Source: an uncultured Victivallales bacterium (GTDB lineage Bacteria; Verrucomicrobiota; Kiritimatiellia; UBA8416; CAYSRM01). From it: a stretch of 64,000 bases of DNA. The notes beneath the pieces are model-generated. The model saw only the letters and a program-made list of their open reading frames with translations, searched no databases and had not been told where the DNA came from. A program made the position numbers and the translations under genes. Of the stretch, positions 31,126-48,409 are shown in pieces (the first letter of the stretch is position 1; each line of letters starts with the position of its first letter). The stretch is from NCBI GenBank assembly GCA_964475205.1, contig CAYYVQ010000002.1, positions 9,965 to 73,964 on the forward strand, given 5' to 3'.

Positions 31126-31180
31126 AGTATAGAGCTAAGGAGTTATTTAGCAGTTTCCTATAACAAGGAAAGGAAAACAG

Positions 31181-33127
31181 ATGAAAACAATAAAACAAAG
31201 TGTGGCGCGAAAAAGTGTATTGTCAATTGCGGTTCTGGTAAGCGTGGCGATAACATCATACGCAAATACGACAAACCAGATTCCATACGTAAACGATTTT
31301 GAAAACATACCGTCGGGAACGCCCCTGGTGGGCTCCAGTGGCTGGTATGGAGCTTCCAACAGTTATGCGATTGTGACCAACAGAGATTACAGCGCTTTCT
31401 ACTCCAACTATCCGCTGCCGACAAGTACCCACTCAAATGTTATGCTGCTGCAGACCGAAGGCACAGTGGTTACCAACGAACTTGAAGACCTGACCGATGA
31501 TGAAACCAGGAGCAATGTAACCAACGTATGGTTTGACAGCGTGATCCGGTTTACCCACTGGTCCGAAGACTCTTATCCTGATGCTATAACCAGCAATGAC
31601 CAGGTTCAATGCGCGTTCTTCGCAAACACCAATGATCACCTTGTAGTGCATCATTATGACTTACTCGGAGAGTCAAACGCTTTCACCGTGATCACCAACA
31701 GCTCCATCACCAACGGTCAGTACACTCGTATAACAATCAAGTTGGACTACCTCTCAGACGAGGCATTCGGGACCATCGATCACACTTATTATCAGCTCTA
31801 CATTGACGGCAATTTGATGACCAATTCCGCTGCGTACCAGTCGCCCAGTGACACCAGCGGAAAACCGGGGACATGGTTTATGACCGCTAATGATGCGGTT
31901 GCAAAAAAATATTTGACAGGGCTGGAACTCTCCGGGAACGGAGTTTTTGACGATATGATCGTATCGACTAATGACACTATGGGCCCCACGCCTGACAGTT
32001 ACACGATCTTTACGGAAGTCAACGATCCGGCGCGAGGCGACATAAGCCCGGACAGCGACACGGTATTTGAAGGCAACGATAGCGATGACTTTGCCATTAC
32101 GGCAAGCAACGGCTATTACGTAGCCCAGCTTCTGACTAATTCCGTGCAGGTCTTCACTAACAGCGACGTGACCGTCACATCAACAAACTACACCTGGCCG
32201 AGCGTCATGGCCGACGGAACGATAACTGTGAACTTCGCAACATCTCCCACATACCTGGTGACCGGAGTAGTGGCAACGGGTCAGGGCACGATTGATCCGG
32301 CAACCACAAATGTGGTGGCTAACAATGATGCTTCCTTCCAGGTAGACGCAGACACAGGCTGGTACATACAATCCATAACAACGAACGAAACGGCGATACC
32401 CGGCAGCCCGTTCGATGTCAGTCTTACATCAACAAACTATACATGGCAGAACGTTGCGGCCGACGGAACAGTAACTGTGCATTTCGCGGAATGGCACCTT
32501 ATAACCGGCGTGGTCGCGACGGCAGGCGGATCAGTGAACCCGGCAAGTAGAATCGTGGCAGATGGACAGAATGCCTCGTTCGACCTTGTTGCAGACCCTC
32601 ATTACCATGTCGGCCTGCTTGAAACCAACGGCACTGCTACCGGCGGACCATGGGACAACAGCTCCACAAACGAAAATTACGTATGGACCTCCGTTGTAGC
32701 AGACGGGACGTTGACCGTTGCATTTACGGAGAATGTCTGGACCAACGGCACACCGGAAACATGGCTGGCAGACTATTACGGTTCCACAAATTATGAGCAG
32801 GCTGCATCGAGTGATACCGACGGAGACGGGCAGGAAGCATGGGCCGAGCACCTTGCTGGAACAGATCCGACCGACAGCAATTCGGTATTCCGGATAGATG
32901 ATACCTGGCATGAAAACGGGACAAACTACCTTAGGTGGGTCAGTCATCATGTCGGAGATCAGACATCACTGCCGCCGTATAACATCGTATACGCCACCAA
33001 TCTGCTCAACGCGGACTGGAACGTGGTAACAGATACGGTGGAAAGAACAGACGGGACACACACAAATGTCTGGTCCTGGGAAAGCGCAGAAGGAGCTTTC
33101 TACCGGATTGTAGTAACCAACCAGTAA
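31181..33127 (+). CDS. secreted protein with three internal ~80-aa repeats and a conserved C-terminal D-x-D-G-D-G / GTDP module
   Basis: The signal peptide is MKTIKQSVARKSVLSIAVLVSVAITSYA. The repeats are TNYTWPSVMADGTITVNFA..., TNYTWQNVAADGTVTVHFA... and ENYVWTSVVADGTLTVAFT.... The C-terminus is TPETWLADYYGSTNY...DTDGDGQEAWAEHLAGTDPTDSNSVF. Confidence 0.7.
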   Translation: MKTIKQSVARKSVLSIAVLVSVAITSYANTTNQIPYVNDFENIPSGTPLVGSSGWYGASNSYAIVTNRDYSAFYSNYPLPTSTHSNVMLLQTEGTVVTNELEDLTDDETRSNVTNVWFDSVIRFTHWSEDSYPDAITSNDQVQCAFFANTNDHLVVHHYDLLGESNAFTVITNSSITNGQYTRITIKLDYLSDEAFGTIDHTYYQLYIDGNLMTNSAAYQSPSDTSGKPGTWFMTANDAVAKKYLTGLELSGNGVFDDMIVSTNDTMGPTPDSYTIFTEVNDPARGDISPDSDTVFEGNDSDDFAITASNGYYVAQLLTNSVQVFTNSDVTVTSTNYTWPSVMADGTITVNFATSPTYLVTGVVATGQGTIDPATTNVVANNDASFQVDADTGWYIQSITTNETAIPGSPFDVSLTSTNYTWQNVAADGTVTVHFAEWHLITGVVATAGGSVNPASRIVADGQNASFDLVADPHYHVGLLETNGTATGGPWDNSSTNENYVWTSVVADGTLTVAFTENVWTNGTPETWLADYYGSTNYEQAASSDTDGDGQEAWAEHLAGTDPTDSNSVFRIDDTWHENGTNYLRWVSHHVGDQTSLPPYNIVYATNLLNADWNVVTDTVERTDGTHTNVWSWESAEGAFYRIVVTNQ

Positions 33128-33150
33128 AAGAATCACAGCAAAGAAAAAAA

Positions 33151-33179
33151 GGCGGCGCAAATTGCGCCGCCTTTTTTTA
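33151..33179 (+). terminator. rho-independent terminator
   Basis: The hairpin ggcggcgcaaattgcgccgcc is followed by ttttttt. It is preceded by an A-tract, so it is potentially bidirectional. Confidence 0.8.
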
Positions 33180-33375
33180 TGGCAAATTTCATGGATACCC
33201 CTTAAACTGACCCGCATTTCTCACTTTCAGTTCCTGCAACACGGAAATAACTCTGGCTTTTCGGTGGTTAATACCTTATTATAATAACCAGAAAGGAACG
33301 GCAGCATCGGGCAGTAAAATCGCTGTGCAGGGCACGGTTAAAACAGGAACGAAAATTGCTGTGTTATAAAGTCAA

Positions 33376-36300
33376 ATGAAAACAGTTAATGACAAATTGA
33401 CCCTGGCAAAAGCAAGTCTGGTCGCGCTAAGCTTCGTGCTGTACGCATCTTTGCCCTTAGCCGCACAGGCAGACATGTATCAGGATTTCGACCAATGGGA
33501 GACACCGCAGTCATTTGGGAATTATGAGAAAAACGGCTGGCAACTGAATGATGGCGCAGCTTACGTTGCCGAAGGCAACACAAACGGACTCCTTAACGAT
33601 ACCGGCGCCAATCTTCGCTCTCCCTACTCATCAAACGGCATCGGGCGGGTAACCTGGAAAACAAGGCTTTGGAGCAGCGGTTCCGTAACCTACGAGCTGC
33701 AGGCTTCCGCATCGCCCGACTTTACCAACCCGATACCCTTAGCTACATATACCTGCGACACGTCAAGCGCATGGCAGTATTTCACAAACGATCTGGCCCT
33801 TTACGACGGCTTGTATCTTCGCTGGAATAAAAACAGCTCCAGTCCATGGCTGAAATTCGACGATGTGCATGTGAGATTGCCCCCGTCCTATGTCAACATT
33901 ACAAACGTACAGACACATCCCGTTTCTCCGATTGTGGGAACAAACACTTTTATATCAGCTACGGTGGAACAGCAGGCAGGCGCAAGCAATATAACCGCAT
34001 CGCTGTTTTACCGCACTGACGCGGCATCCTCTTTTACGGAAATTTCAATGTCCTCCAACGGGGTTGATTCCTATATTACCGATACCGGGATACTAACGAC
34101 AACACCGAATCTGACAGTGGAATATTACATTAAAACAGATTTCGACGGTCGCTATACATCGTCAACACAATATTATCCCGCAGGCGGTTCATCAGATCCG
34201 TCTTCATTCGTGGTGAGAGCTTTATCGCCCTATACAAATATATCTGTCAAGGGCGCAGACGAAACCAATATGCACCTTGTGGACAATAATCAGTGGAAGG
34301 GCGTCCTGACTACCAACGGCCTTCTTTCCGACCCCGTGTTCTATTTTGAGAGCGGATCCGGCACATGGGGCGATGACAACCAGTCGGTATCCAATCTGCC
34401 CGTATATGGAACCGCACAGTCAGGCAGTTCCAATATTACTGTCGAAGGCACAGTCACAAGCCATCTTGCCTTCGCCTTTGATGACAACAGCCAGGATTAC
34501 AGCATCCAGCAATGCGAATATATTGATTTCGACAACTGGACCGTTGGAACCACAGGGAACTACGGCACATATACCAACAGTGAAGGCTGGGTTCTTGACG
34601 CAGGGCGCATAAACAAGAATTCCGACAACGAGTGGGACCGGGCGCTGCGCGGCCGCTATGCTATATTGAAACACGGATATACCAACCAGTTCGACAGGGA
34701 AATCCAGTACCTGCGCTCTCCCTATATGGATGATGGTGTTGGAACTATCTCGTTCTGGTACAGAAACTGGGAAAAAGACGGATCGCCTGAGGCCGGATAC
34801 CTGGTACAGAAATCAGCCACCGGCGCCGGCGATTGGATAACAGTCAGCGATTCATACAATACCAACATTACTTCTGCAGGATACCTCTGGACACAGATTG
34901 GAATCGCTGATCGCAACGCACATTATGTGCGCATAGTGAACACAAATGAAAGCAACGATTCCTGGCTATGCCTGGATGAGGTCGCAGTTTCTCATCCCGG
35001 CGCTACAGTCGGGCTTACCGACCCGTGGCGCAGCGCGGCATCTCCGCTCCTTGGCGAATCTGTAGATGTGTCAATTACAACGACCAATGTCGGGGGGGGC
35101 GCCACCAACCTGGAATGTTATGTCTGGTTTCGGCATGAAGATTCATCTGCTTTTTCTCAGATTACACTGAGCCGGAGCAACAGTGTCTTTTATGCGACTA
35201 TACCTGCAACTCCGGAAGGCGAAGTTGAGTACTACTTCGAGTGCACATACGAAGGATTCAATGCCGCAACAATATTCTATCCCGAAGGCGGCGCCGACGC
35301 CCCTTCCCTGCTGACATATACCAATCAGCAGTCGCACGGAAACACGCGTTATGAAGATTTCGAATCATGGAGCACACCGGACGTTTTCGACGACTACACC
35401 AATGCCGCAGGCTGGGTGATTCATCAAGGCGCAGTATACGACAACAGGGGACTGATAGGAGACTCGTCTGAAAGTGCGTCTCTGACAAGCCCTGAACTGA
35501 GCAATGGGGTAAGCTCAATATATTTTGACCTCGCCAATTGGCAATCTGGAGAAAATATTGCAGAAATTCAGACTTCTACCAACGGCACTACATTCCAGCC
35601 CATTGCCACAATAACGAACACTGAGGTACATGGCGCCAGAGAGTACTATCAGATTCAAGTGGATGACAACAAGGTCACCCACATACGAGTGCTCAAGACC
35701 GACGACAAAGGGTCGCATCTGTACATAGACAACGTCGTCATATCTTATCCTCCTGCCGACGTCGATATTACGGATCAGTTTTACGCCCCTGGTTATCCCA
35801 TGACTAATGACGAGGTTACAGTCTCATGCGTTATCACTTCAAGCAACGCCAGGCAGTCGGCGTATAATCTTGACCCGGAAATGCATTACAGGAGTGAGGA
35901 CTCGCAATGGACCAGCGTCGGGATGAATCACTCCGGGAGCAATGTATACACCGCCGTGATACCGGCAAATACACCCGGCACAATACAGTATTATATCGAA
36001 TGCGGCTTCGACGGTTATTATTATGGGCCGGAAAACCAGAGCCCGGCATTTCTGCCGGATGCTCCCGCGGCCAGCGAGCGGCCTGACACATTTTTCTCAT
36101 ATGATGTCAGGCATCACCACTCCGATTACTCGCACCTTAGCATAACCGGGTCTGTTGAAACCGCGTCAATGACTCTTATAGGCAACGATTACTGGCAGGG
36201 AGTTGTGGCTATAGACCAACCGACAAACGAAATACAGCTTGCTCTCAACGGCCATAACAAATGGCTGGGCAGCTCTTATTCTTCAGAAACCGACACATGG

Positions 36301-39300
36301 GGGGCAACAAACCAGATACGATACGAACCCCCCATCCAGACCGAGGCTAATCAGGCAGGCGATAGTATACTGGTAAGAGACAATTTCACCGGCACAAATC
36401 AGGTGGTTGTCCGGTACGACCTTGCAACGGGGACATACCTGATATTCAGGGCGGCATACCAGGATTTTAATGAATGGAACCTTGCGTCAACCGAGTATTT
36501 TGACCAGAGCCTGAGCGAAAGCACAATATCAAGCACGACCAACACCTTCGACCACTGGCCCGTAGACAGCGTCGATCCGGATCCGGAAAAGCCCGACACC
36601 ATGATTGAAGATATGGAAAGCTGGACAGTCGGCGCTTACTATGACGATTCCGGGCGCAGCGACATGAGCGCAAACGGCTGGTATTGCCAGGCTGCTGAAA
36701 TCATCGGAGATCCTTACGGTGGCGAGGATAAGGCTTTAAGGTTTGATCCGACCGATGAGCACATTTACACCCAGGGCAAAATATGGCCGCACCGGGCTAC
36801 CCTTACGAAAGGGCTTGATACATTCCAGTTCAAGTACTACTGGTCCCTCTCGAAGGACAATAACCCCGCCTATTACAACCTTGGCTCAAACCTGGACAAT
36901 TACCAAATCACTGCAAGCATCACAGGTCCCGAAACTTCGCCAAGGCCGTCCTACTCAGCTCTTGCCCGCTATCAGGACACGGATAATTACTACGAATTCA
37001 GGCTCAGGAGCAGAGACACCGACAATAGTGACACGATCCTTGAGCTGTACCGCCACAACAATGGAGCAGCAGAGCGCCTTGACGCAACGGCTGACAACAA
37101 CAACAACTTAAGAAACCGGACTCAGAACATTAAATTTTCGGTTTGCACCAACAACGGCGGACGCGCCTACATACGTTTTGAGTCAAACGGAGAAGCAAAA
37201 CTATTCCATGACACGGATACATCGTCAGTTTTGGCTTCTCCCGGTTCATTCGGATTCCTGTGCAACGGCGCGGATATACGTATAGACAACATAGAAGTGC
37301 GCCATCAGCATCGTCAGCATTTTGACAACTGGCTTGACGATCCAACAGGTTGGGTCGTTACCAATGGTTATGTGCATAGCAATTATGACGACTGTCGTCT
37401 TCCGGGCAACAACGACGCAAGACTTACAACCCCGTACCTTGGCTATGATGTTGGAACGCTCTCTTTCTATTACAAAAAATATAACAACGACGGAGCGTGC
37501 GAGGTATACGTATATGGGTCCAACAACGCCTCAGACTGGACTGTCATCACAAACTGGAGCACAACCTCCAGCGGCTCTTACAAAACACTTACCGACGGGC
37601 TTACAGGGTATAATTACTTTCAGATTAGAAACGAAACTACAAATTCGGCCGGTCTTGAGATTGATAACGTGGTTATTACCGAGGATGATGACTTCTACAC
37701 TAATCCCTTCGACACCGCCGCTTCAACATCTGACTGGACGGATGTGACAGGCGATATATGGTACTACGATTCGACCAACCAGACCTACAACCGCCCAGGC
37801 GAAGTGGGGCCGCCAATTGATTTTGTCGTGCAGAAAGGGTATACCAACGAAAGTTTTACCTACGCGCCCACAAGCTGGATAGACGTAGCCACAATAACCG
37901 CTACGAATATGAAGTACCAGACAGCAAACGTTGAATTTGAATACTGGGACGAGCTGTTTGTTCGAATCAAGCATGACGACGGCCAGGCAAGCCTGGTCCT
38001 GGACGATCTGAAACTGACAAAGTGGCGCGGAACTGATTCCTATACCGATACCAATAACTGGAAGGCAACCGGTATATGGGTTTCCGAGCATTCCCCGGAA
38101 GACAGATGCATCGAGCTTTGGAGATCAAAGATCAGCCCGGACAAGCCTCAATATGTGCGCTCCCCCCTCATGGAAGGCATAGGTTCTGTCACATTCCTGC
38201 AAAAGGTGGCCAACGGACCGGCCGAGTTCCAGATTGAAATTGCTTCTGAAGACGCTCCTGACACCTTTGTGCCCCAGGCGACGGTAACCGTGACAAATGA
38301 GGACTGGCAGACCTATACGTACATGATACAGACTAACGATAATTTCTATGCAAGAATCCGCCACACAACCACCAACCGTAATACTGTCCTTTACATAGAC
38401 GACATGGAAATTTCAGACTACGCCGAACGAGACAGCAGGACGTGGGAAGCATATAACGCTCTGATAACTCCAAACGAAGACTCGCGTGAATTCGAGCCGT
38501 ACTCGGGTTACAGAACAGCTTACCTTAACAACAACCCGACAAACGGAACGGCTTCCGGTGACAACTTCGATCGCGACAGGCCGTATATCCAGTCGCCGCG
38601 AATGCCAAACGGAATAGGCGAGATATCATTCTGGTACAGAAACTGGGAGACAGACGGTCTCCCGGCGGGAACATTCCACATAATGTCATCGCCAACCGAC
38701 GGCGGCACATTTGACGAATGGACGCAGATCACGACGGTTTCAAACCTCACGAATACGGATTACCGTTATTTCTCAACAAACCATTACAATGCCGACCACC
38801 GCTACGTGCGCGTATACAGTGAAACCAATTCGGGCTGCTCCCGGCTGGCCATTGATAACCTGCTTATCGGCCACCCCCTGGCTGCCGACTTCAGCGTGAC
38901 CAACCTCACGACTATTCCTGAAGTGCCCCTGTATTCATCATCTGTAGATTTGTCTGTAGATCTCTACAACTTCATCCTCCAACCTCAGAACATCCAGGTA
39001 AGGGCATACTATAACATCGGATCCAACAACTGGGCTCAGTGGGAGAACTGGAACACCAACAACTATATAGACCTTGACCTCACATCTTCCAGCCCTGCAC
39101 AGCGCACTTATCAGTCCTCAGGTGCATCGATTCCTCAGCTCCCAGTCAATACAGTGGTACAATACTACCTGGAATTCACTTTCGACGGACCTAATTCAGA
39201 CAAAACAAGTCCGAAAACCTATGCTGCGTTCTCAAACCCGGATTATTATGATCCCATCGATCTCAACGACGGCCACTCAGTCACAAACCCCTACTACTTC

Positions 39301-41646
39301 GTCCTCGGATCGAAGCCGGGAGAGGTATGGCTGAATGAGGTTAACTATGCCAACAATGGTTTTGAAACTACCAACGAATATATTGAGATCGTCGGCAGGG
39401 AGGGAATAGATGTTGACGACTGGGAAGTCGAGCTGGTTACTACTGCAGATATAACTTATGACAGCGCCGTACTCACAAACGGATCTCCTTTTGCCAACAC
39501 AACAAATGGCTTTGGCTTTATTGTCTATGGCGATCCCGGGGTCAACAATGTCGACCTGGTTTTCGAAACGCCTTCAAATCAGAATATTGAGAAAAACAGC
39601 GGCGCAAGACTCGTTAGAGGCATGGGGGCCCATGCAGATAAAATATGCTGGGGCGACCCTGATACTCTGGATACATTGACATCAAATGGCTACCGATATA
39701 TAGGAGAGAAGACTACTATTTACGCCTTCTCTCCGCTATATGCAACGGGAACCGGCATAGAAAAGTCTGATTTTACAGACTGGGACTTCAATACATCCAG
39801 CGGCTCATGGTACTCGCCGGGTAACGAAAACGAATCACAAACTATGATCGCCTATCAATCAACTCAGACTCTTACAGTGGCATCGGCTTTAGGCACGCCT
39901 TCCCCTGCGACAGGAACCAACGCTTATCCGAGGGGAACTACGTTGACCTGCGCCATGACCGACTCGCCCATAAACATCGGCGTCCTTTCCACCCAGTACC
40001 TGTGCACAGGATGGAGCGGCAGCGGCGATATCCCGACTTCAGGCTCCACCACCAACACCGGAGAGATAATGCTGCTTAGTGACTCGTCCATCACCTGGCA
40101 GTGGGTCACCAACGTCTACCTCGACGTGCAGACAAACGGGAACGGCTCGGTCGATAACACGGGCTGGTTCCAGCAGCATTCGGCCGTGACAGTAACGGCT
40201 ACGGCAGCCGAATATAACGCGTTCACCGGATGGACCGGAGACACCAACGGATGCAACATCTCGTCAAATGTCCTTACAATCGATCAGCTCTCGGAACCCC
40301 GGGGTCCGATTACCGCTAATTTCGAGTCCACTGACCGCACTCTCGACGTGACTTCAACCTATGCCGCGACCAACATCGCGCCACCCCCCGGATCACATGT
40401 CTACCATGACAATGATCCCCTTTCTTGCGTGGTGAGTAACCGTGCGATCTACAAGGGATCAATGGCGACACAGTACCTGGTTACCGGCTGGAGCCCCACC
40501 GGAAGTGTGCCTGAGATGCCAGCTATCGGAACAGAGACAAACTTTGTATGGGAATGCGATGCGGGAGTTGAAACATGGAACGGGAATGATGGCGATGACT
40601 GGGTTACAATCCTGGTTGCCGATGGGGACGAAAAAGGGCTTGGGAACTTCACTCGCGACAGTTTCGCCACCAACGGAATATCTGTTGGCGACGATCGAAT
40701 ACTTGACAATACAACAGTTATGGACTTTGGCGGCAATCTTTACTGGGATGCGTCTGTAGATATTCCGACCGGGCTGAGAGTATACACAGTGGTCTTCAAC
40801 AGCGCTGACATATCTACAGCCACCCATTATATCATCCCTACCAATGCGAACACGTTCTTTACTATTGACGGCAATGATTACGACTGCGGTACGGCCCTTG
40901 CAGGCGAATGGACGCCTCTTGTTGCTCCTGAGACAAACAATACCGCCATAAGCACAGGGCCATTCAATATAACATCGGATTCCAGCATAGACTGGCTCTG
41001 GCAGACAAATCATTACCTGGACATTTCAGTGAGCGGCAGCGGCATCGTAGATGTGGCAAGCGCCTGGTTCAAGTCAACCAGCAACGTAACAATAACAGCC
41101 TATCCTGAGTCAGGCTATACGCTTGATTCCTGGACGGGCAACACAAACGGATGCGTAATAAACAATCTGCAGATTGAAGCGCCAATGACTCTTGCCAGGA
41201 ACATCACGGCCTCTTTTGTTCCGGAATCAAATGACAGAACAGATCAAGGAACGCCGTATTCGTGGCTCGATGATTACTACACGTCCAACTACGATTACTG
41301 GGACACTAACGATTCGGACCTTGACGGAATGGCCGCGTGGATGGAATACGTAACCGGAACCGACCCTACAAATGAACAATCAACATTCCAAATACTGGAA
41401 ATAGGCTACGGCGACGGATCAAACTTTTTAAAGTGGTACGCAACCACCAACAGCGGCGTTTACACACCGTTTGGAATCTACAGGACAACCAATATACTTG
41501 AAGGATGGGGTTCGCCATACATCACAAACGTGGGTCCGCGCGATCCCGACGGGACCGGCACAAACACATGGTGGGATACAAATCCTCCGCCGGCCGATGT
41601 CCCGGTATACTATCGCCCGTACGTCATTTGGACCAACAGCCCATAA
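33376..41646 (+). CDS. giant secreted multi-repeat surface protein (2756 aa) with a lamin-tail-like domain, InlB-B-repeat-like modules and a C-terminal D-x-D-x-D-G / GTDP module
   Basis: The signal peptide is MKTVNDKLTLAKASLVALSFVLYASLPLAAQA. At least six modules carry [LI]xSPxxxxG[IV]G.[IV]SF[WY]Y[RK]NW. VWLNEVNYANNGFETTNEYIEIVGREGIDVDDWEVEL is LTD-like. Three YL[CV]TGWS....I.W modules follow. The C-terminus is GTPYSWLDDYYTSNYDYWDTNDSDLDGMAAWMEYVTGTDPTNEQSTF. Confidence 0.8.
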   Translation: MKTVNDKLTLAKASLVALSFVLYASLPLAAQADMYQDFDQWETPQSFGNYEKNGWQLNDGAAYVAEGNTNGLLNDTGANLRSPYSSNGIGRVTWKTRLWSSGSVTYELQASASPDFTNPIPLATYTCDTSSAWQYFTNDLALYDGLYLRWNKNSSSPWLKFDDVHVRLPPSYVNITNVQTHPVSPIVGTNTFISATVEQQAGASNITASLFYRTDAASSFTEISMSSNGVDSYITDTGILTTTPNLTVEYYIKTDFDGRYTSSTQYYPAGGSSDPSSFVVRALSPYTNISVKGADETNMHLVDNNQWKGVLTTNGLLSDPVFYFESGSGTWGDDNQSVSNLPVYGTAQSGSSNITVEGTVTSHLAFAFDDNSQDYSIQQCEYIDFDNWTVGTTGNYGTYTNSEGWVLDAGRINKNSDNEWDRALRGRYAILKHGYTNQFDREIQYLRSPYMDDGVGTISFWYRNWEKDGSPEAGYLVQKSATGAGDWITVSDSYNTNITSAGYLWTQIGIADRNAHYVRIVNTNESNDSWLCLDEVAVSHPGATVGLTDPWRSAASPLLGESVDVSITTTNVGGGATNLECYVWFRHEDSSAFSQITLSRSNSVFYATIPATPEGEVEYYFECTYEGFNAATIFYPEGGADAPSLLTYTNQQSHGNTRYEDFESWSTPDVFDDYTNAAGWVIHQGAVYDNRGLIGDSSESASLTSPELSNGVSSIYFDLANWQSGENIAEIQTSTNGTTFQPIATITNTEVHGAREYYQIQVDDNKVTHIRVLKTDDKGSHLYIDNVVISYPPADVDITDQFYAPGYPMTNDEVTVSCVITSSNARQSAYNLDPEMHYRSEDSQWTSVGMNHSGSNVYTAVIPANTPGTIQYYIECGFDGYYYGPENQSPAFLPDAPAASERPDTFFSYDVRHHHSDYSHLSITGSVETASMTLIGNDYWQGVVAIDQPTNEIQLALNGHNKWLGSSYSSETDTWGATNQIRYEPPIQTEANQAGDSILVRDNFTGTNQVVVRYDLATGTYLIFRAAYQDFNEWNLASTEYFDQSLSESTISSTTNTFDHWPVDSVDPDPEKPDTMIEDMESWTVGAYYDDSGRSDMSANGWYCQAAEIIGDPYGGEDKALRFDPTDEHIYTQGKIWPHRATLTKGLDTFQFKYYWSLSKDNNPAYYNLGSNLDNYQITASITGPETSPRPSYSALARYQDTDNYYEFRLRSRDTDNSDTILELYRHNNGAAERLDATADNNNNLRNRTQNIKFSVCTNNGGRAYIRFESNGEAKLFHDTDTSSVLASPGSFGFLCNGADIRIDNIEVRHQHRQHFDNWLDDPTGWVVTNGYVHSNYDDCRLPGNNDARLTTPYLGYDVGTLSFYYKKYNNDGACEVYVYGSNNASDWTVITNWSTTSSGSYKTLTDGLTGYNYFQIRNETTNSAGLEIDNVVITEDDDFYTNPFDTAASTSDWTDVTGDIWYYDSTNQTYNRPGEVGPPIDFVVQKGYTNESFTYAPTSWIDVATITATNMKYQTANVEFEYWDELFVRIKHDDGQASLVLDDLKLTKWRGTDSYTDTNNWKATGIWVSEHSPEDRCIELWRSKISPDKPQYVRSPLMEGIGSVTFLQKVANGPAEFQIEIASEDAPDTFVPQATVTVTNEDWQTYTYMIQTNDNFYARIRHTTTNRNTVLYIDDMEISDYAERDSRTWEAYNALITPNEDSREFEPYSGYRTAYLNNNPTNGTASGDNFDRDRPYIQSPRMPNGIGEISFWYRNWETDGLPAGTFHIMSSPTDGGTFDEWTQITTVSNLTNTDYRYFSTNHYNADHRYVRVYSETNSGCSRLAIDNLLIGHPLAADFSVTNLTTIPEVPLYSSSVDLSVDLYNFILQPQNIQVRAYYNIGSNNWAQWENWNTNNYIDLDLTSSSPAQRTYQSSGASIPQLPVNTVVQYYLEFTFDGPNSDKTSPKTYAAFSNPDYYDPIDLNDGHSVTNPYYFVLGSKPGEVWLNEVNYANNGFETTNEYIEIVGREGIDVDDWEVELVTTADITYDSAVLTNGSPFANTTNGFGFIVYGDPGVNNVDLVFETPSNQNIEKNSGARLVRGMGAHADKICWGDPDTLDTLTSNGYRYIGEKTTIYAFSPLYATGTGIEKSDFTDWDFNTSSGSWYSPGNENESQTMIAYQSTQTLTVASALGTPSPATGTNAYPRGTTLTCAMTDSPINIGVLSTQYLCTGWSGSGDIPTSGSTTNTGEIMLLSDSSITWQWVTNVYLDVQTNGNGSVDNTGWFQQHSAVTVTATAAEYNAFTGWTGDTNGCNISSNVLTIDQLSEPRGPITANFESTDRTLDVTSTYAATNIAPPPGSHVYHDNDPLSCVVSNRAIYKGSMATQYLVTGWSPTGSVPEMPAIGTETNFVWECDAGVETWNGNDGDDWVTILVADGDEKGLGNFTRDSFATNGISVGDDRILDNTTVMDFGGNLYWDASVDIPTGLRVYTVVFNSADISTATHYIIPTNANTFFTIDGNDYDCGTALAGEWTPLVAPETNNTAISTGPFNITSDSSIDWLWQTNHYLDISVSGSGIVDVASAWFKSTSNVTITAYPESGYTLDSWTGNTNGCVINNLQIEAPMTLARNITASFVPESNDRTDQGTPYSWLDDYYTSNYDYWDTNDSDLDGMAAWMEYVTGTDPTNEQSTFQILEIGYGDGSNFLKWYATTNSGVYTPFGIYRTTNILEGWGSPYITNVGPRDPDGTGTNTWWDTNPPPADVPVYYRPYVIWTNSP

Positions 41647-41718
41647 AAAGGTATTGTGGAGGCACAAGCTCCACGAGTCCGCAATCTAAAGAAACAAACT
41701 GCCGCCCCAGACGCACCC

Positions 41719-43887
41719 CTACTCTCTGAGCACATCAAAATACCTGAGGAAATATCGATGCTTGCCCCCGGCATCAGGCCATGGATCGCGCCATACAACC
41801 GCAACTGCCCGGGCCCTGGCGCGCACACTTCCGTAATGACCTTCTCGCAGCCCGCCCACAGGTTCGGCATAAGAATCAGCGGCAAGTATTATGGTAAAGA
41901 TATTCTGACGTGTAGTCAGCAGCTCCACAGAATTCCTGATCGGAGCTTCTCTGTCAATTTCGTCTCCGCTTACCGAGTCGCCCCAATCTAAACGGCCAAG
42001 TTCAGACACATTTGTGTACGGGCCATTGCTCCAGATTTCATTCGCAATTTCTTCTGCGACCCCCTGATCAATCTGTCGGTCAGGCAGTGGAAATACGGGA
42101 TCGTACTCCTTAAGCGGAACATACGTGAAAACCGCCGCAAGCGCGTTAGTATTGAAAGAGTTAATGTTGACCAGGCCTTTTTGAAAGCCTTTTTCCCTCG
42201 TTGTGAACCAGTCAAGCACGTGGTCGTAATCCGACCATTCGGCATGCTTGTATAACCCAATGGTATGCCATGGCCTGTCAAGGCATATATATCCCAGTTC
42301 ACCAACGGTCTGCAGGTTCGTGTTCGCAATATGCAACGCAGTGTCACCATCAGCCTTCGGGTCATAAGCCGCCTCGTCGGAATCAAAAACCGCTAAGGTA
42401 ACGGTATTGTCTTTACCTATTGTCGGCTTATCCACGCCATAAAACATCTTAATGGTCTTACCCGGAATCCAACTTGCAACATTGTCCGCGCTACCGTTAA
42501 AGCGCGGATCCACACACTCAAACCAGTTGGTTATTGTGAAATGATCTCCAGCGGAAACTTCTCTATCCACTTCAAAAACAAAACCCGCACTCCCTGAAAA
42601 GTCCGGATATGGCACCTGGTCAACAAGGTTTGATGAAGAAGTACTCTCTTTTAACCTTATTTTCAGTTCCGCGGTAAAATTCAGATCAAAATCGTTTGTG
42701 TCCACGTTTCCATTCTTGTCTTCCCCGTAAATATCCCTTCTATTGTATTGTTCGCTGGCGCCAAACGTCTCGGCGCCGCTCATGTCGTCAGGAATCAATT
42801 CGTCATGCGTATTGGCGTCTTTTTTTTCAAAACTCAATTCATACTCAAGACTATACGACTCCCCCGAGAATTCCCTGAAAGGATACATACACTCAAGTTG
42901 CATAACGGGCTCAAACCCGTGTGGCATTGAATATTGCCCGTTGGTTTCTACATGTAGCGTATAGCAGAAAACCACTTCATTGAGCATTGGAGCCATGTCA
43001 ACGTGTCCATCGGCAAGATTAGTAGGAACCAGATCTTCATCTATGTAGTCAAGTAAATTTGAATACGCAAGGCCCGCGTCATAGTCAGCCCTCATGGTAC
43101 ATTCCTCAAAGGCGCTGAGTATATCCTCCTCCGACCATTCGCTCCTGTTTGTGCCTATATAAACCTGAGAACGAAGATTCGTCCCATTGTGCAGAAACTC
43201 GCCGACCGGACTCAGCGAAAACGTGAATAAATCCTTAACGTTGGTGGCGCTAAGAAAACCTTCGGCATCGCCAAAGGCGGTAAGCTCTCTGAAAGTCTCG
43301 AACGGGTAGTTGTCACGCTCGTTAAGCAGGGCAGCAGCATCCCTCACCCCGTCAATTCCGTCAATCTGTATTTCCGCCGGAGACACCCCCCTTAGCCTGT
43401 CGAGGCCTCCAGCATGGTTGATGTCGATCCATCCTGAACAATCCGCGGCCACAAAAGAGTAGCGTCCCACAATAGTCCCTTCAGAATTTTCAATTGTGTG
43501 CCAGTAGGCCGGCGTCGACATGACATTATCCGCAAGATCGTCCGGCAGAAACTCAAGGGCTTTTCTGGTCAGCAGCCTGGCCCTAGTGTCTTCGTTCGTA
43601 AAGACGCCCTCTCCGCGCGATCCAAGAACTGCATCAGGCGGAAATATTTTAAAAGAATTAGACGTCACCATCTGCCCGTTAATGTCTTCCATTGCGCGCC
43701 CAAGCGCGGCAAACAACATGTGCCTGGATTGCATCGAGTTCCTGAAGCTCGCGGCGCCCTGCCGTTCGACCCGCATTGAGATCGAGAACGCCATAGCCGC
43801 GATCATCAATACCGCAAGCAGCCCCAGCACCATGATTATGGCTACTCCACGTCTGTCATTAATCCAGATTGTTCTTTCTTTTTCCAT
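41719..43887 (-). CDS. gspK: GspK-like minor pseudopilin, unusually large (~720 aa)
   Basis: The N-terminus RRGVAIIMVLGLLAVLMIAAMAFS is the GspK-type uncleaved hydrophobic leader. It is the last gene of the pseudopilin operon. The start is taken at MEKERTIW. Confidence 0.6.
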   Translation of the reverse strand: MEKERTIWINDRRGVAIIMVLGLLAVLMIAAMAFSISMRVERQGAASFRNSMQSRHMLFAALGRAMEDINGQMVTSNSFKIFPPDAVLGSRGEGVFTNEDTRARLLTRKALEFLPDDLADNVMSTPAYWHTIENSEGTIVGRYSFVAADCSGWIDINHAGGLDRLRGVSPAEIQIDGIDGVRDAAALLNERDNYPFETFRELTAFGDAEGFLSATNVKDLFTFSLSPVGEFLHNGTNLRSQVYIGTNRSEWSEEDILSAFEECTMRADYDAGLAYSNLLDYIDEDLVPTNLADGHVDMAPMLNEVVFCYTLHVETNGQYSMPHGFEPVMQLECMYPFREFSGESYSLEYELSFEKKDANTHDELIPDDMSGAETFGASEQYNRRDIYGEDKNGNVDTNDFDLNFTAELKIRLKESTSSSNLVDQVPYPDFSGSAGFVFEVDREVSAGDHFTITNWFECVDPRFNGSADNVASWIPGKTIKMFYGVDKPTIGKDNTVTLAVFDSDEAAYDPKADGDTALHIANTNLQTVGELGYICLDRPWHTIGLYKHAEWSDYDHVLDWFTTREKGFQKGLVNINSFNTNALAAVFTYVPLKEYDPVFPLPDRQIDQGVAEEIANEIWSNGPYTNVSELGRLDWGDSVSGDEIDREAPIRNSVELLTTRQNIFTIILAADSYAEPVGGLREGHYGSVRARARAVAVVWRDPWPDAGGKHRYFLRYFDVLRE

Positions 43888-44169
43888 CTCATTTACGTCT
43901 TTCAAAACGTTTCTCGAGCCGATCCAATCAGCCCGCCTCGCCTTTCCACACAAACTGATGTGTTTCCTGCTATATCTCCGTCATCCGTGTCAATTAGCGT
44001 CTATTAGCGGTTCCTCTTTCCAGGGCGGCAGCAGGTTGACACAACCTGCTGTACTCCAACGTACAGCGGGTTATCACGTAACCTGCTGCCCAACCATAAC
44101 CCGCGTTACCCAGCATATAACCCATACCCCGACGTCCAACTTGTCACAACGCAGGCCCGCCAAAGCGCA

Positions 44170-44652
44170 TCAGTCATATTTGTACCGGTTCCTGTTAGGA
44201 AACCAGACAGTCGTCTCAAAATATTCAGGCTCCGGCGCATCCGGCGCATCCGGCTCGGCAAATCTAACCCGATAAACATTTCCCCAGGGATCCTTGTAGC
44301 CGTCTTCCCATTTCGGTGTGTCAATATCAAGAAATTTCAGTTCCCTTGGATTCTCCGATGTGTCATCCCCCTGCAGGATAGCCATTCTCTGCTCGGTCAT
44401 GGCATAATACTGGTCTCCGGAAACAAAAGAAGGCCACTTTTCGTAAGTAATCCGATACGCTTTCCAGGCCTTCGCCAACTCTCGAACTTCCGATTTGGCG
44501 CTGTCTATGTGCGCCCTCTGCCTGGCGGATCTGGCGGCAACAAACATAAGGCCGGATAATATCATGATAATCGCCAGCACCGCCAGCATCTCAAGCAGCG
44601 TAAAGCCATGTCGCCGGGTTTCTGTGCCGGCAAAATCCGGATCTGAATACAT
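44170..44652 (-). CDS. GspG-family pseudopilin paralogue
   Basis: HGFTLLEMLAVLAIIMILSGL is the prepilin motif and DPWGNVYRV is GspG-type. The start is taken at MYSDPDFAG. Confidence 0.65.
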   Translation of the reverse strand: MYSDPDFAGTETRRHGFTLLEMLAVLAIIMILSGLMFVAARSARQRAHIDSAKSEVRELAKAWKAYRITYEKWPSFVSGDQYYAMTEQRMAILQGDDTSENPRELKFLDIDTPKWEDGYKDPWGNVYRVRFAEPDAPDAPEPEYFETTVWFPNRNRYKYD

Positions 44653-44656
44653 ATTT

Positions 44657-45229
44657 TTACCATGACCTGATGTCATCATCTTCTCCATCGTCGTCCTCGC
44701 CGTCCGGCCCATACGAAAGAACCCCGAGCCCTGAAATCGTGTCTTCACGCTCAAGTTCAAGGCGCACATTCAGATATTCCGGCAGTGCATCGGAAGCGCC
44801 ATCGCTTCTTATGAACTTCAAGGCCCTTATGCCTTCAACAAGCGTCGAGTGGCCAGAACCGGGCAAATTCATAGTCACCGTATCACCGCTCTGTTCAATG
44901 CTTACCACCTGCGCGGCCCTGTTGCTTCCCTCCATATCCAGAACCACAAACTCTACTGAACTGCCGTTATCCGGAATGGATGTCTCACCATGCCCCTCAT
45001 AACCGTCAGGCGGATTTACCGCCCTCGACATCCACGTGGAAATGATGCCGAGCGCGGCACGGGCGGCCATGGCAGACTCCGATTTCCTGCTTCCCGCGTC
45101 CCAGGCAATCGTGGACTGGTGAAAAACAGCGCTGATAATCATAACGATAAGCACAAGGATTACAGTTGCGCTCATCACTTCGATAAGCGTGAAACCGCTC
45201 TTTTGTCTGTCCGGCATTGCAATTTTCAC
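44657..45229 (-). CDS. gspJ: GspJ-like minor pseudopilin
   Basis: SGFTLIEVMSATVILVLIVMIISAVF is the prepilin motif. The position after the gspI-like gene fits, and the C-terminus is acidic. Confidence 0.55.
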   Translation of the reverse strand: MKIAMPDRQKSGFTLIEVMSATVILVLIVMIISAVFHQSTIAWDAGSRKSESAMAARAALGIISTWMSRAVNPPDGYEGHGETSIPDNGSSVEFVVLDMEGSNRAAQVVSIEQSGDTVTMNLPGSGHSTLVEGIRALKFIRSDGASDALPEYLNVRLELEREDTISGLGVLSYGPDGEDDDGEDDDIRSW

Positions 45230-45244
45230 AAATGGTTCTCCACG

Positions 45245-45727
45245 TCACATTCCCACGAAGGTCATCTCCGTCAAATACTCCTCCACAGCTTCTTCAAAGT
45301 CGCCAAGCTGCCCCCTCGCCACACGGACCCGGCACTGCTTTCTGCTCTCGTCTTCAGTGGAACTGATGGTTATCTCGTACCTGATCCAGTTATCTGCGGC
45401 GTCCTCGGGAAAATTCACCCCTCCTCCGACTGCGGTGTTAGTCCAACCCTCGGTTTCAAGGGGATAAAGGTCTTTGTCCAGCATTGCTTTAAACCCAGCG
45501 CTGTCAACCCAGTCGCTCCAGTTACTGACCGTCGACGCTTTGCCCTGGAATGAATTGAGTATATGATCGGCGAACATAGCCTCGTAAGTGTCGGAAACAT
45601 TCTGTTTTGATTCCTGCAGTCCCAGGGGAAAAAGAGACATAAGCCCGAACAGGCCTACCGCCAGAAGCAGAATGGCAAGATTCACTTCTATTAAACTAAA
45701 CGCGGATTTTTGCAAACCTGATTTCAT
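45245..45727 (-). CDS. gspI: GspI-like minor pseudopilin
   Basis: KSAFSLIEVNLAILLLAVGLFGLMSLF is the prepilin motif. The protein is short and sits between the H-like and J-like genes. The start is taken at MKSGLQ. Confidence 0.5.
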   Translation of the reverse strand: MKSGLQKSAFSLIEVNLAILLLAVGLFGLMSLFPLGLQESKQNVSDTYEAMFADHILNSFQGKASTVSNWSDWVDSAGFKAMLDKDLYPLETEGWTNTAVGGGVNFPEDAADNWIRYEITISSTEDESRKQCRVRVARGQLGDFEEAVEEYLTEMTFVGM

Positions 45728-45746
45728 TTGTCTATTGCCGTCCATT

Positions 45747-46430
45747 TTACGGATCCATAACGATTTTCGCGAACCCCTGAGCATCTACTTCAACCTCGAA
45801 CAGATCTATCTCGGAAGCCCCGCGGGTATCTTTAACAACAACACTGCCGCGCGTAGCCGTGCCGTCGCTATAAAACTCAAAACGATCATTATCCGGTGTC
45901 TCAGACCACTGAAGACCTTCCGGCAACCTGTTGACCGGTCTGACTTCCCACCCGTACTCGTTGTGGCTGCCGCTCCATATATTGTCGCTTGTTTCCATTA
46001 CTATCTCGAAATTATCGTTTGTGTAGGTTCTCGTTACGATAGTAGACTCGCCGTTCTCCAGGTTATAAATCTTTGCAGTCTGTCCGGAGTTAAGCTCCAG
46101 GCTGCCGAACCTGTCACTGAGCCCTCCGGCCTCGGCCTTTCCGACGCCCTCACTCGAACATGTAACATAAAAACATGTATTTGATTCCTCTTTCAACAAA
46201 ACCACTGTTTTACGTCCTTCAAGCATGGCGGCCTGCCGCGCAAAACGCAGGGTCGACCGCAGGTGATGGGCAGAGCTGCTCCCACGGATTCCTTTTGTCA
46301 AACTGAAATACGATGCCATGCCGATCCCCGCCATAATGATAACTATGCCCATTACGGTCAGCAGCTCGATTAAAGTAAATCCGCTGCCCGCCTTTATCGG
46401 CCTGCATGAATCAACTTGAAACTTCATCAA
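45747..46430 (-). CDS. gspH: GspH/FimT-like minor pseudopilin
   Basis: GSGFTLIELLTVMGIVIIMAGIG...LRFARQAAMLEGR is the prepilin motif plus the GspH-type Arg/Ala helix. Confidence 0.55.
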   Translation of the reverse strand: MMKFQVDSCRPIKAGSGFTLIELLTVMGIVIIMAGIGMASYFSLTKGIRGSSSAHHLRSTLRFARQAAMLEGRKTVVLLKEESNTCFYVTCSSEGVGKAEAGGLSDRFGSLELNSGQTAKIYNLENGESTIVTRTYTNDNFEIVMETSDNIWSGSHNEYGWEVRPVNRLPEGLQWSETPDNDRFEFYSDGTATRGSVVVKDTRGASEIDLFEVEVDAQGFAKIVMDP

Positions 46431-46915
46431 TAAGTCTGGCCTTTTTCAACAGTGGAGTTTGTGACAGTAACACTGTCATTTTCGCAGTTTATGATTATGG
46501 TGTACGCATCGCCCCATGGATCGACAATAGCGTCGTCTTCAAGCCTGTATTCGTCCCAGTTAACAAAACGCACCTTCCGCGGATTATAACCACCGCTATC
46601 CGATGACAGGTCGTCAATGATCTCCTTATGCCCTGTATCGCCGTCATTTGTATGCACACCCGTGAATTGATCCGTTTGCAGCCCGGGCCACCTGTCATAT
46701 TCATGGCGATAGTTATATATTGCCAGAGCAAGCGTATGCACGTCTGCCTGGGCTTTACGGCGTTGCGCGGCTCTGCGCGATCTGCTGAAAGCAACCGTCA
46801 GCAAACCGAACAGCATGCCGATGATAACAACAACCATCAACAACTCGATCAGCGTAAAGCCCTTTCGAGCCGACCGCGATTCGGGATTTATCATGCCTGT
46901 ACAACCGGTTTTCAT
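46427..46915 (-). CDS. gspG: GspG-family major pseudopilin
   Basis: KGFTLIELLMVVVIIGMLFGL...LALAIYNYRHEYDRWPG...DPWGDAY are the GspG hallmarks. Confidence 0.7.
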   Translation of the reverse strand: MKTGCTGMINPESRSARKGFTLIELLMVVVIIGMLFGLLTVAFSRSRRAAQRRKAQADVHTLALAIYNYRHEYDRWPGLQTDQFTGVHTNDGDTGHKEIIDDLSSDSGGYNPRKVRFVNWDEYRLEDDAIVDPWGDAYTIIINCENDSVTVTNSTVEKGQTY

Positions 46916-47437
46916 CTATTTATCCCAGCTCTTTATGTCGTCCCCTGTGTTTTCAGTCCGGTCAGGGCCCTTTGACCATATTGCAACATACTTATCCACG
47001 TCCCCGTGCGGAGCGCTTACCTCTCCATCAAGATCCGTATCAAGCCTTATTGACAAGAGTTCGCCCCACGGATCGCGCAGTCCTGATGTAGCGGAGTTTG
47101 TTCCCTGCTCCTCGATAGTGAAATCCACATATTCCTCTATGTATCCAATCGCATTGGTGTCCATCTCGGTTAATGTTTCAGAGGGAAACTCCTGGTTCTC
47201 CGTCAGGTAATAATTCCACGCTGTATCAAGCTGGCTTATCATCTGCCTGCACGCCACTTTTTTGCCCTGCTCAGGCGTTTTGCGGATCGCGCCAAGCAAC
47301 AGCCCGGCCAGGGTGGCGATAATTGCGATAACAACAAGAAGCTCTATCAGCGTAAAACCAAACCCTTTCAAGGGAGCAGTCCTCCGCCTTTCTTCCAGTC
47401 CTTTTTTTTCACGCATAAAAATATTGTCCTTGAACAC
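46916..47437 (-). CDS. GspG-family pseudopilin paralogue
   Basis: GFGFTLIELLVVIAIIATLAGLL and DPWGELL are present. Confidence 0.65.
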   Translation of the reverse strand: MFKDNIFMREKKGLEERRRTAPLKGFGFTLIELLVVIAIIATLAGLLLGAIRKTPEQGKKVACRQMISQLDTAWNYYLTENQEFPSETLTEMDTNAIGYIEEYVDFTIEEQGTNSATSGLRDPWGELLSIRLDTDLDGEVSAPHGDVDKYVAIWSKGPDRTENTGDDIKSWDK

Positions 47438-48160
47438 CTACATACTGTCTCTGTGTATATCATTTGCAGCAGGGTTGTCATCATCCTCTGTTTCAGGATC
47501 GCCCTTCGACCATAGCTCATAACTCAGGTAAGGCGGATCAGATTCATATTTTATGACCCGGTCCCACCCATCCAATATAGTGTCTACGTTATTCGTAAAA
47601 GGCTTTCCATCTTTGGTGTAATGCGTGGGGCCTTCCTTTGTGGTAATCACGCCGGTCATAAATTGGCTCCATCTTCCCTTGGCGCGCTTGTCCCGTGAAT
47701 TATCCCCTATCCATGCGCTGTCACTATTGTCCGGATTAACAAGATGAAGCGGATTCATGGTGTCTCTCTTCCTCGTATCCAGGAAGGCTACAAGTCCGTA
47801 CTCGAAGTTCAGCTCCTCGACATTCTCCTCCTCCGTAAAGTAATTATTATTCTCCCAATATGCCATGTAAGCCTCATTGGTATTCTCATACTGGTAGCAG
47901 ATCCGGCAGTCGTCGCCATGAAACGTGCACACACCCGGCTTAACCGGCGGATAAACGCCATACTCGCTTTTAAACTCTTCAAGCGCCCCGGCAACCCTGG
48001 TCAAGACTTCAACTGTTTTAGCCTTTTCCTCGCTCTTACCCGAAAGTCCAGAAAGCCTGAAAACAATTCCAGCCAGAATCGCAATCACCACCATGACAAC
48101 GAGCACTTCAATTAATGTAAAAGAACTGCGCCTCTCAGCTTTCATGCCACTCACCTCCAT
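47438..48160 (-). CDS. GspG-family pseudopilin paralogue (extended C-terminal)
   Basis: SSFTLIEVLVVMVVIAILAGIV...LEEFKSEYGVYP is the prepilin motif. Length is 240 aa. Confidence 0.6.
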   Translation of the reverse strand: MEVSGMKAERRSSFTLIEVLVVMVVIAILAGIVFRLSGLSGKSEEKAKTVEVLTRVAGALEEFKSEYGVYPPVKPGVCTFHGDDCRICYQYENTNEAYMAYWENNNYFTEEENVEELNFEYGLVAFLDTRKRDTMNPLHLVNPDNSDSAWIGDNSRDKRAKGRWSQFMTGVITTKEGPTHYTKDGKPFTNNVDTILDGWDRVIKYESDPPYLSYELWSKGDPETEDDDNPAANDIHRDSM

Positions 48161-48206
48161 GTAAATATTACCACTTATTCACTTTTGTGAAAAGGGAAAA
48201 CACTCA

Positions 48207-48400
48207 GCAATTCTCATTATAGCCATTTTGCCACGTTTGGCGTGGCCAGAGTTCCGGCACGATATTGCAGCCACGCGCGAGTAGGCCCGGCTTCACCGAA
48301 GCCGAGGCCCCAAGAGCGCTGGGCTTCGGTGAAGCCCGCGCTACTACGCACATCGTTATACAAATAGGTTTTGGCGGAAAGAGGCCGTAATGAGAATTGC
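48207..48400. mobile_element. 194-bp MITE-like element, copy B (intergenic between gspF and the first gspG paralogue)
   Basis: It is near-identical to 30875-31068, with a few substitutions inside the TIRs (atagcc versus atggcc, ggccgt versus ggccat). The spurious ORFs 30839-31021 and 48204-48410 encode the same peptide. Confidence 0.8.
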
Positions 48401-48409
48401 TGGAAAACA

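Follow-up and report, generated by a model that had tools for sequence, protein, structure and literature searches.

This analysis concerns a stretch of 64,000 nucleotides from an uncultured Victivallales bacterium (contig CAYYVQ010000002.1), called the window in the following, and a protein module which ends two large secreted proteins encoded there next to each other (Table 1). Both proteins begin with a Sec-type signal peptide, judged by eye from the sequence: MKTIKQSVARKSVLSIAVLVSVAITSYA/N (...VAITSYA/NTT) in the 648-aa protein and ...PLAAQA/DMY in the 2756-aa protein. In the smaller one the signal peptide is followed by an N-domain of ~260 aa without Pfam match, three Ig-like repeats and the module. 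The giant one is composed of repeated jelly-roll-like units, a lamin-tail-like stretch, InlB B-repeats and, at its C-terminus, again the module. That the last ~110 aa of the two proteins correspond to each other had been proposed in an original prediction made from the letters of the window. Indeed, their C-termini share 43 identities over 112 residues (38%) with a pairwise E of 1e-19, and both copies match the module profile over its full length. The span given at that time for the second copy, 41221-41646, brackets the unit defined by our profile correctly. In copy 1 a Ca-binding N-terminal part (N-part) with a loop at 32813-32869 precedes a predicted FN3-like beta-sandwich, and the protein ends with ...AFYRIVVTNQ directly before the stop codon; copy 2 has its Ca loop at 41311-41367 and ends with ...VYYRPYVIWTNSP before the stop. 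In the six-frame translation of the window, exactly three sites fit the motif D.D.D[GN]…E…G[TS][DN]P. The module profile finds the same three open reading frames (ORFs) and no others, the third belonging to a membrane protein of a neighbouring secretin locus.

Table 1. Coordinates of the two module genes and of the secretin locus in the window
Feature	Position	Strand	Basis or remark
Secretin with TPR N-terminus, Amuc_1098-like	22038-25085	-	Pfam Secretin 1.7e-35; Amuc_1098_fam 433 bits (cut-off 750)
Amuc_1099-family protein, 355 aa ("PilP-position")	25197-26264	-	NCBIfam Amuc_1099_fam, Pfam TSP3_bac
Module-homologous stretch of the Amuc_1099-like protein (residues 131-207)	25644-25874	-	Two Ca loops and first beta-hairpin
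Motif site in the Amuc_1099-like protein	25734-25790	-	Regular expression
Amuc_1100-like	26254-27171	-	NCBIfam 1.9e-18; 67 bits (cut-off 180)
PilM/Amuc_1101-like	27182-28870	-	NCBIfam 2.7e-145; 485.6 bits (cut-off 650)
Amuc_1102-like	28877-29518	-	NCBIfam 3.7e-10; 39.7 bits (cut-off 55)
Prepilin-type protein	29641-30495	-	N_methyl motif, DUF1559 (SBP_bac_10), H-X9-DG C-terminus
Gene for 648-aa secreted protein	31181-33127	+	ORF; N-terminal signal peptide
Module copy 1 (residues ~516-648 of the 648-aa protein)	32726-33124	+	Profile positions 2-127, E 3.5e-37
Motif site in copy 1	32813-32869	+	Regular expression
Gene for 2756-aa secreted giant protein	33376-41646	+	ORF; N-terminal signal peptide
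Module copy 2 (C-terminus of the 2756-aa protein)	41227-41634	+	Profile positions 3-125, E 4e-31
Motif site in copy 2	41311-41367	+	Regular expression
Right-hand operon	41719-49693	-	744-aa ORF, four prepilin-type ORFs, GspF
744-aa ORF	41719-43953	-	Pseudopilin-like hydrophobic N-terminus (…GVAIIMVLGLLAVLMIAAMAFSISMRVE…), no Pfam match
Four prepilin-type ORFs	44170-44769, 46427-46915, 46916-47437, 47438-48160	-	Right-hand operon
GspF	48410-49693	-	Right-hand operon

The passenger part of the 2756-aa protein (33376-41220, forward strand) holds several repeat units of ~250 aa (…F..W……GW……LRSP…G.G..SF.Y.NW…) without Pfam match, and its lamin-tail-like stretch contains …VWLNEVNYANNGFETTNEYIEIVG…. 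Orthologues of this giant in three other genomes, described below, have PA14 and Laminin_G_3 matches.

A large family of C-terminal modules

A first, word-indexed search with one module as query retrieved only four relatives. Scoring a profile from six sequences against 1.84 billion representative proteins (clusters at 50% identity) gave 24,740 matches at E<=1e-3, 6,646 at E<=1e-10 and 42 at E<=1e-30. For the genomic context, the 80 best loci from species-representative genomes were taken with flanks of ~10 kb, plus the window. As had been supposed, the module is a real conserved unit and not a chance or low-complexity match. Its position within the proteins is strongly biased. A full-length module is present in 144 of the best 150 database matches, and in 130 of these 144 the C-terminus is at most 10 residues away; in the 80 loci and the window the stop follows within 10 codons in 91 of the 93 full modules. 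The element [FY]Y[RK] stands 4-7 residues from the end in 111 of 122 modules, and proline is the last residue in 52 of the 122. The near-invariant positions are P7, W10, D27, D29, D31, G32, E38, A41-G42-T43, P45, S50, Y82, Y123 and R124. The N-part follows the consensus …TPxxW…D-x-D-G-D-G-x5-E-x2-AGTDPT and the last strand reads F/Y-Y-R-x-x-V. According to the module alignment the family consensus opens with two loop-helix Ca-binding repeats; the first of these loops is degenerate in both window copies. In one locus (L089:7223-8483) a 257-aa CARDB-like ORF stops 5 bases before a 160-aa module ORF begins, which suggests a frameshift or a split gene call, and some of the short "module-only" proteins in the database look like fragments as well.

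AlphaFold2 predicts the module as a single compact unit of ~125-130 residues when supplied with an alignment of 41 sequences (predicted local distance difference test, pLDDT, 86; predicted template modelling score, pTM, 0.73). An earlier run on six sequences, with a pLDDT of 57, is superseded by this one. In the model three short helices are arranged around an acidic loop (residues 8-41), followed by six strands (52-126). Among PDB sequences the profile matched nothing but EF-hand loops, those of calmodulin and calcineurin B (E~1e-3), and the Fn3-like protein 3mpc (E 4.5e-3), and Foldseek with the module model gave no matches at E<=1e-3. The core of the module had originally been described as a Ca-binding signature of the thrombospondin type 3 (TSP3) kind. 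This assignment, widened to TSP3/EF-hand-type loops, is borne out by the EF-hand matches just named and by TSP3_bac matches in the Amuc_1099-like protein and in some relatives.

TSP3_bac (PF18884, threshold 25 bits) matches neither window copy, be it as whole protein or as isolated module. The relative P0003 reaches 22.1 bits, and a match at E<=1e-4 is seen in 5 of 33 full-length members. In 37 of the 41 members the N-part also matches the Amuc_1099 family model in its TSP3 region, with a score under the cut-off. The calcium-loop consensus D-x-D-x-D-G-x5-E…GTDP is common to TSP3_bac and the N-part; however, the former is a 22-residue repeat, whereas the module is a fixed unit of ~125 residues with an obligatory sandwich and a terminal FYR strand. 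For the sandwich half no Pfam or NCBIfam model was found when the whole proteins, their modules alone and the 41 members were scanned, and no paper on the combined module or on its FN3-like half was found in the literature. The N-part falls into a known repeat class. Neither Pfam-A nor NCBIfam has an entry for the module as a whole or for its FN3-like half.

The named taxa among the 80 best loci are Victivallales/Lentisphaerae, Kiritimatiellia (Pontiella, Tichowtungia), Verrucomicrobiia (Limisphaerales and others) and Coraliomargarita (Opitutales-type). Exceptions are several metagenome-assembled genomes (MAGs) labelled only "bacterium" and one Hydrogenedentes locus with the N-part only. Named matches place the family almost wholly in the Verrucomicrobiota/Lentisphaeria/Kiritimatiellia branch of the Planctomycetes-Verrucomicrobia-Chlamydiae (PVC) group. 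The names of the database clusters fit the same taxa, and the NCBI names for the carriers refer to their passenger domains only. Copy 1 of the window is 94% identical to its counterpart in a Victivallales MAG (L001). Several MAGs contributed two loci each, and two or three module genes were found in 16 loci.

Which proteins carry the module was examined in 33 full-length carriers with signal peptides. The Pfam passengers are Flg_new_2 (13), Calx-beta (10), LTD and CotH (7 each), CHB_HEX_C (6), fn3 (5), beta-helix (4) and PATR (3), besides LamG, CBM6, PKD, peptidase C1 and others; all passenger domains are of extracellular type. NCBIfam adds the families choice-of-anchor X (4) and Q (3), together present in 7 of 33 carriers, as well as one ScyF-like PEP-CTERM relative and one GlyGly-CTERM relative. 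In other bacteria, passengers of the choice-of-anchor, PEP-CTERM and GlyGly-CTERM types are equipped with known sorting signals at the C-terminus. This is the strongest indirect argument that the module takes the "anchor" slot in such proteins. By a crude hydropathy rule, about half of 95 scored matches of at least 350 aa possess a signal peptide, and many of those without one look like 5'-truncated gene calls from metagenomes.

The secretin locus beside the module genes

The "secretin operon" to the left of the two genes is, judged by its sequences, distantly related to the Akkermansia Amuc_1098-1102 (MUL2) locus. The genes for secretin, Amuc_1099, Amuc_1100, PilM and Amuc_1102 follow each other in this order and are flanked by CoaE and Rho; the gene order recurs in seven contigs from other genomes (L081-L087), whose orthologues carry the Pfam Amuc_1100 and Amuc_1102 families. 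Since their scores stay below the equivalog cut-offs (Table 1), the Amuc_1098-, 1100-, 1101- and 1102-like proteins of the window are distant relatives and not equivalogs. In Akkermansiaceae the locus is syntenic with the genes for dephospho-CoA kinase and Rho (PMC13174399), and the "pili-like" or MUL2 locus of Akkermansia has been reported to be necessary for mucin uptake, with a proposed role in attachment (PMC13174399, PMC12418764). Methylacidiphilales reportedly have no MUL2 (PMC13174399). The Akkermansia muciniphila locus Amuc_1098-Amuc_1102 agrees with the window in gene order and in the CoaE and Rho flanks, whereas the window version adds an insertion with pseudopilin genes and the two module proteins, and four of its proteins are sub-equivalog. 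A GspE gene was looked for in the 64-kb window and not found.

Between 15427 and 56270 the conserved order of the window reads ClpX, ClpP, Tig, Rho, CoaE, 5'-3' exonuclease, secretin, Amuc_1099, Amuc_1100, PilM, Amuc_1102, the insertion, GspF, L17, RpoA and, further on, SecY. For a reverse test the contigs L081-L087 were chosen by their PilM orthologues, at 51-56% identity. In L084, L086 and L087 the row leads from ribosomal genes, SecY, RpoA and L17 to GspF, Amuc_1102, PilM and Amuc_1100, and from there over Amuc_1099, secretin, 5'-3' exonuclease, (CoaE,) Rho, Tig and ClpP to ClpX. Because GspF directly abuts Amuc_1102 in these three, the region 29641-48160 of the window, with the prepilin gene, a 94-aa ORF, the two module genes, the 744-aa ORF and the four pseudopilins, behaves as a facultative insertion.

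The layout of the window was met again in L081 (Verrucomicrobiota), L082 (close to a Lentisphaerae MAG) and L083 (Kiritimatiellae). All three have a divergent gene for a mid-size protein (457-486 aa) and, behind it, one for a giant of at least 2480-3181 aa. The mid-size proteins are orthologous to the 648-aa protein (29-33% identity in the N-domain, E 1e-25 to 1e-42) and each closes with a complete module at its stop codon (E 1e-29 to 1e-31). The 2756-aa protein has its orthologues in the giants, which are 32-35% identical to it over 1300-1700 aa; their sequences end at the 10-kb flank, ahead of the C-termini. The prepilin gene, flanked in the window by the Amuc_1102-like gene and the gene of the 648-aa protein, is found at the same place in L082 and L083.

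In the forward test, starting from the module genes, MUL2-like genes were present in only two of the 80 loci, L001 and L010. L010 has only the mid-size orthologue, a protein of 901 aa in the same position, and in L001 the start of a giant orthologue is visible; a further giant orthologue, with 77% identity, was found in L020. Taking both tests, mid-size module orthologues stand divergent from an Amuc_1102-like gene in L001, L010, L081, L082 and L083. The two module proteins form a conserved pair and are part of an insertion in a locus embedded among housekeeping genes. Orthologues adjoin the locus in five genomes besides the window, and three complete loci lack them; the association of module and locus is therefore recurrent but facultative. 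The 901-aa protein (L010:7682-10387, forward strand) also contains, between Ig-like repeats, a copy of the N-part only (ANGTPLWWLA…NDFDGDRSPTWQEFQLETDPTNPLSV).

Another combination of secretin and module was observed in three Verrucomicrobiota MAGs (L046:721-10372, L055:616-6168 and L056:1706-10354), where a conventional secretin (Secretin_N and Secretin) lies upstream of one or two genes for proteins of ~1200-1300 aa with NHL propeller, CHB_HEX_C and module. The secretin gene directly precedes the module gene in L046 and L055, and ~3 kb lie between them in L056. This is a second conserved pairing of secretin and module genes. For a random gene, a secretin within ~13 kb is expected in ~1% of cases, by rough estimate and not by computation. 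With 5 of 80 loci, secretins look enriched near module genes, but they are distributed over two independent syntenies.

The third motif site of the window belongs to the 355-aa Amuc_1099-like protein. Against Amuc_1099_fam (NF042425) it scores 91.9 bits (cut-off 50, E 5.3e-26) over profile positions 105-320 of 321, and against TSP3_bac 36.2 bits (threshold 25) in two stretches, the best at residues 159-180. From an N-terminal transmembrane (TM) helix the chain runs through a 4-Cys ribbon and a TSP3 double repeat to a beta-rich C-domain. A sequence search of the PDB with the profile of the Amuc_1099-like proteins returned no PilP or GspC relative. Four invariant Cys (CxxC…CxxC, residues ~101-118, with a weak match to the UPF0547 zinc ribbon) sit just after the TM helix and ahead of the TSP3 repeats; they are kept in all eight aligned Amuc_1099-like orthologues.

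The original prediction had seen the core of the module also in this membrane protein, and this holds for the Ca-binding N-part and the first beta-hairpin, though not for the module as a whole. An hhalign comparison of 41 modules with eight Amuc_1099-like proteins (probability 99.0%, E 2.4e-18, 71 columns) spans module positions 3-77, which correspond to residues 131-207 of the window protein, and leaves the rest of the sandwich uncovered; the hidden Markov model (HMM) of the module reaches over positions 3-53 only (E 1.2e-6). The shared element exceeds the 22-residue repeat yet is dominated by TSP3. The occurrence of the motif on a component of the machinery had further been read as a sign of recognition. 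This reading found at most weak support: the element comprises the TSP3 double repeat and one beta-hairpin, and because TSP3 repeats are present in unrelated adhesins too (MtsD, CglD, Bap), a shared element alone is no sign of recognition. The resemblance is that of a common TSP3 element with one hairpin and not a demonstrated recognition pair, module and Amuc_1099-like subunit having the same element and not complementary ones.

Sorting domain, end-piece or docking plug

Terminal position together with diverse extracellular passengers fits a sorting or anchoring domain. We estimate a probability of roughly 0.5 that the module targets its carrier to the cell surface or holds it there, and the odds are about even, too, that it works like the known C-terminal sorting domains, yet it is a member of no tested family. 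The carriers would leave via Sec, the N-terminal helical piece with its one or two Ca2+ loops would pack on the FN3-like sandwich, and the module would then be a Ca2+-stabilised terminal domain which directs its carriers to the cell surface and/or retains them there. It might thereby fill the functional slot which is taken in other phyla by PEP-CTERM or by the C-terminal domains (CTDs) of the type IX secretion system (T9SS). A recognition or anchoring signal analogous to these two had been suggested originally. The distribution is as expected for such a signal (91/93 and 130/144 terminal, diverse extracellular-type passengers, some with Sec signal peptides); a sequence relation to either of the two was not found.

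The T9SS CTD of Bacteroidota (Por_Secre_tail/TIGR04183) is, like the module in its predicted fold, a small Ig/FN3-like beta-sandwich without hydrophobic tail. Either one forms the very end of many proteins which are exported by Sec and otherwise unrelated, and the CTD passengers, too, are adhesins, glycan-active enzymes and choice-of-anchor domains. The module differs from it by the additional, obligatory TSP3 Ca element and by the host clade. Membership in this family was rejected, as the Pfam and NCBIfam scans of whole proteins, modules and the 41 members gave no HMM match to it. Neither a PorU-like sortase nor other machinery was identified in the window or in the ~10-kb flanks, and PVC bacteria are not known to have a T9SS. 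PEP-CTERM likewise marks the C-terminus of diverse secreted proteins, but it consists of a short motif, a TM helix and a basic tail, whereas the module is a folded domain. A TM-like tail (a 15-mer within the last 35 residues) was found in only 1 of 122 modules, the window proteins end with ...FYRIVVTNQ and ...YYRPYVIWTNSP, and there was no NCBIfam PEP-CTERM match, so that this family was rejected as well. In L090 both elements co-occur, with a PEP_exosort_dom protein near a module gene.

Several observations weigh against a sorting role or against its connection with the secretin locus. The remaining ~10% of the top database matches are mostly tandem or internal full copies, and N-part-only copies occur inside proteins too, for instance at residues 369-443 of the L010 protein; both are unlike classical sorting signals, and the L010 case indicates that the Ca-binding piece can also act as an internal linker. 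The tier of E<=1e-3 takes in proteins which match via TSP3 repeats alone (P0008, P0013, P0017). The three complete MUL2-like loci L084, L086 and L087 hold neither a module gene nor pseudopilins, no module gene is seen in L085, where the contig ends 1.5 kb upstream of Amuc_1102, and within the flanks of 75 of the 80 module loci there is no secretin or pilus gene. A census of the neighbours, for which 645 ORFs of the 80 loci were clustered, revealed no recurrent sortase-like, peptidase, receptor or other dedicated processing or sorting gene beside the module genes, the commonest families being sulfatases (7/80 loci) and secretins (5/80).

Part of these observations would be explained if the module were a structural or adhesive end-piece only, that is, a Ca2+-rigidified linker with an FN3-like cap, which stabilises or terminates a fibre or binds a ligand and has no sorting role. 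The terminal position would then reflect a habit of domain architecture. This is a possible but less likely explanation. The predicted fold is generic and FN3-like, internal and tandem copies as well as N-part-only linkers exist, TSP3 is a structural Ca-binding element in many adhesins (MtsD and CglD matches), and a recurrent sorting enzyme nearby is missing. It accounts less well for the strictness of the terminal position (91/93) and the fixed tail of 4-7 residues. The passengers, moreover, are unrelated, include enzymes and not fibres alone, and overlap with the "choice-of-anchor" families.

For the window itself the most likely reading would be that the adhesin-like pair of 648 and 2756 aa are surface partners or substrates of the neighbouring machine, which resembles type II secretion systems (T2SS) and type IV pili (T4P). 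That this MUL2-like machine of T2SS/T4P type is the export route or the docking site of the module seems to us doubtful, or at best a guess worth keeping. In a more specific form, the module could be the targeting signal of the Amuc_1098-1102/GspF machine, copying the TSP3 element and beta-hairpin of Amuc_1099, the subunit in the GspC/PilP position, and so docking cargo at the secretin, and this we consider rather improbable.

Slightly more improbable still is that the module serves as a dockerin-like, Ca2+-dependent plug into a cohesin-like scaffold or into an Amuc_1099-, 1100- or 1102-like component of the machine. Type I dockerins are C-terminal, too, have duplicated loop-helix Ca motifs and occur on diverse secreted, often carbohydrate-related carriers; the two repeats which open the family consensus, the EF-hand-like matches in the PDB profile search, the gene pair beside the machine in six genomes (the window counted) and the homologous element of the Amuc_1099-like subunit all agree with such a function. 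However, the module adds an FN3-like domain, and type I dockerin was rejected as there was no Dockerin_1 match in Pfam even at E<=10. The degenerate first loop of the window copies is also not in favour of a plug, nor is the fact that the machine subunit has the same element and not a complementary one. No cohesin-like partner was found near the module genes of the 80 loci and no candidate receptor family recurs there; nor was a partner found for the Ca-dependent docking pair considered in the original prediction. That the similarity is a local accident, by recent duplication or gene conversion of two adjacent genes on the same strand or by a low-complexity D/G/T-rich match, is refuted by the thousands of homologues, by the identity of just 38% between the copies compared with up to 49% between copy 1 and modules of other genomes, and by the module-bearing orthologues which each gene has in distant lineages.

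For the placing of large glycan-binding and degradative proteins on the surface of Verrucomicrobiota, Lentisphaeria and Kiritimatiellia, no curated C-terminal sorting domain specific to these groups was found in the libraries searched. If the module is a true sorting domain, a search with its profile would be enough to predict the surface proteome of these bacteria, which abound in gut, rumen, marine and soil communities, and a tool for the display of proteins on their surface would be at hand. Through the repeated insertion in the Amuc_1098-1102/MUL2-like locus there would also be concrete candidate clients for this machine, whose function is being actively investigated in Akkermansia muciniphila (PMC13174399, PMC12418764). 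Were the module indeed the targeting signal of this machine, a T2SS/T4P-like system would gain a recognisable and transplantable substrate tag, and the long-sought clients of the Akkermansia-type "pili-like" locus would be identified. Even as a structural end-piece only, it represents a very large uncurated domain family which deserves a database entry.

A minor observation concerns the 744-aa ORF, the distal gene of the pseudopilin operon. It gave no tblastn match in the 80 loci and may be a very divergent minor pseudopilin of the GspK type.

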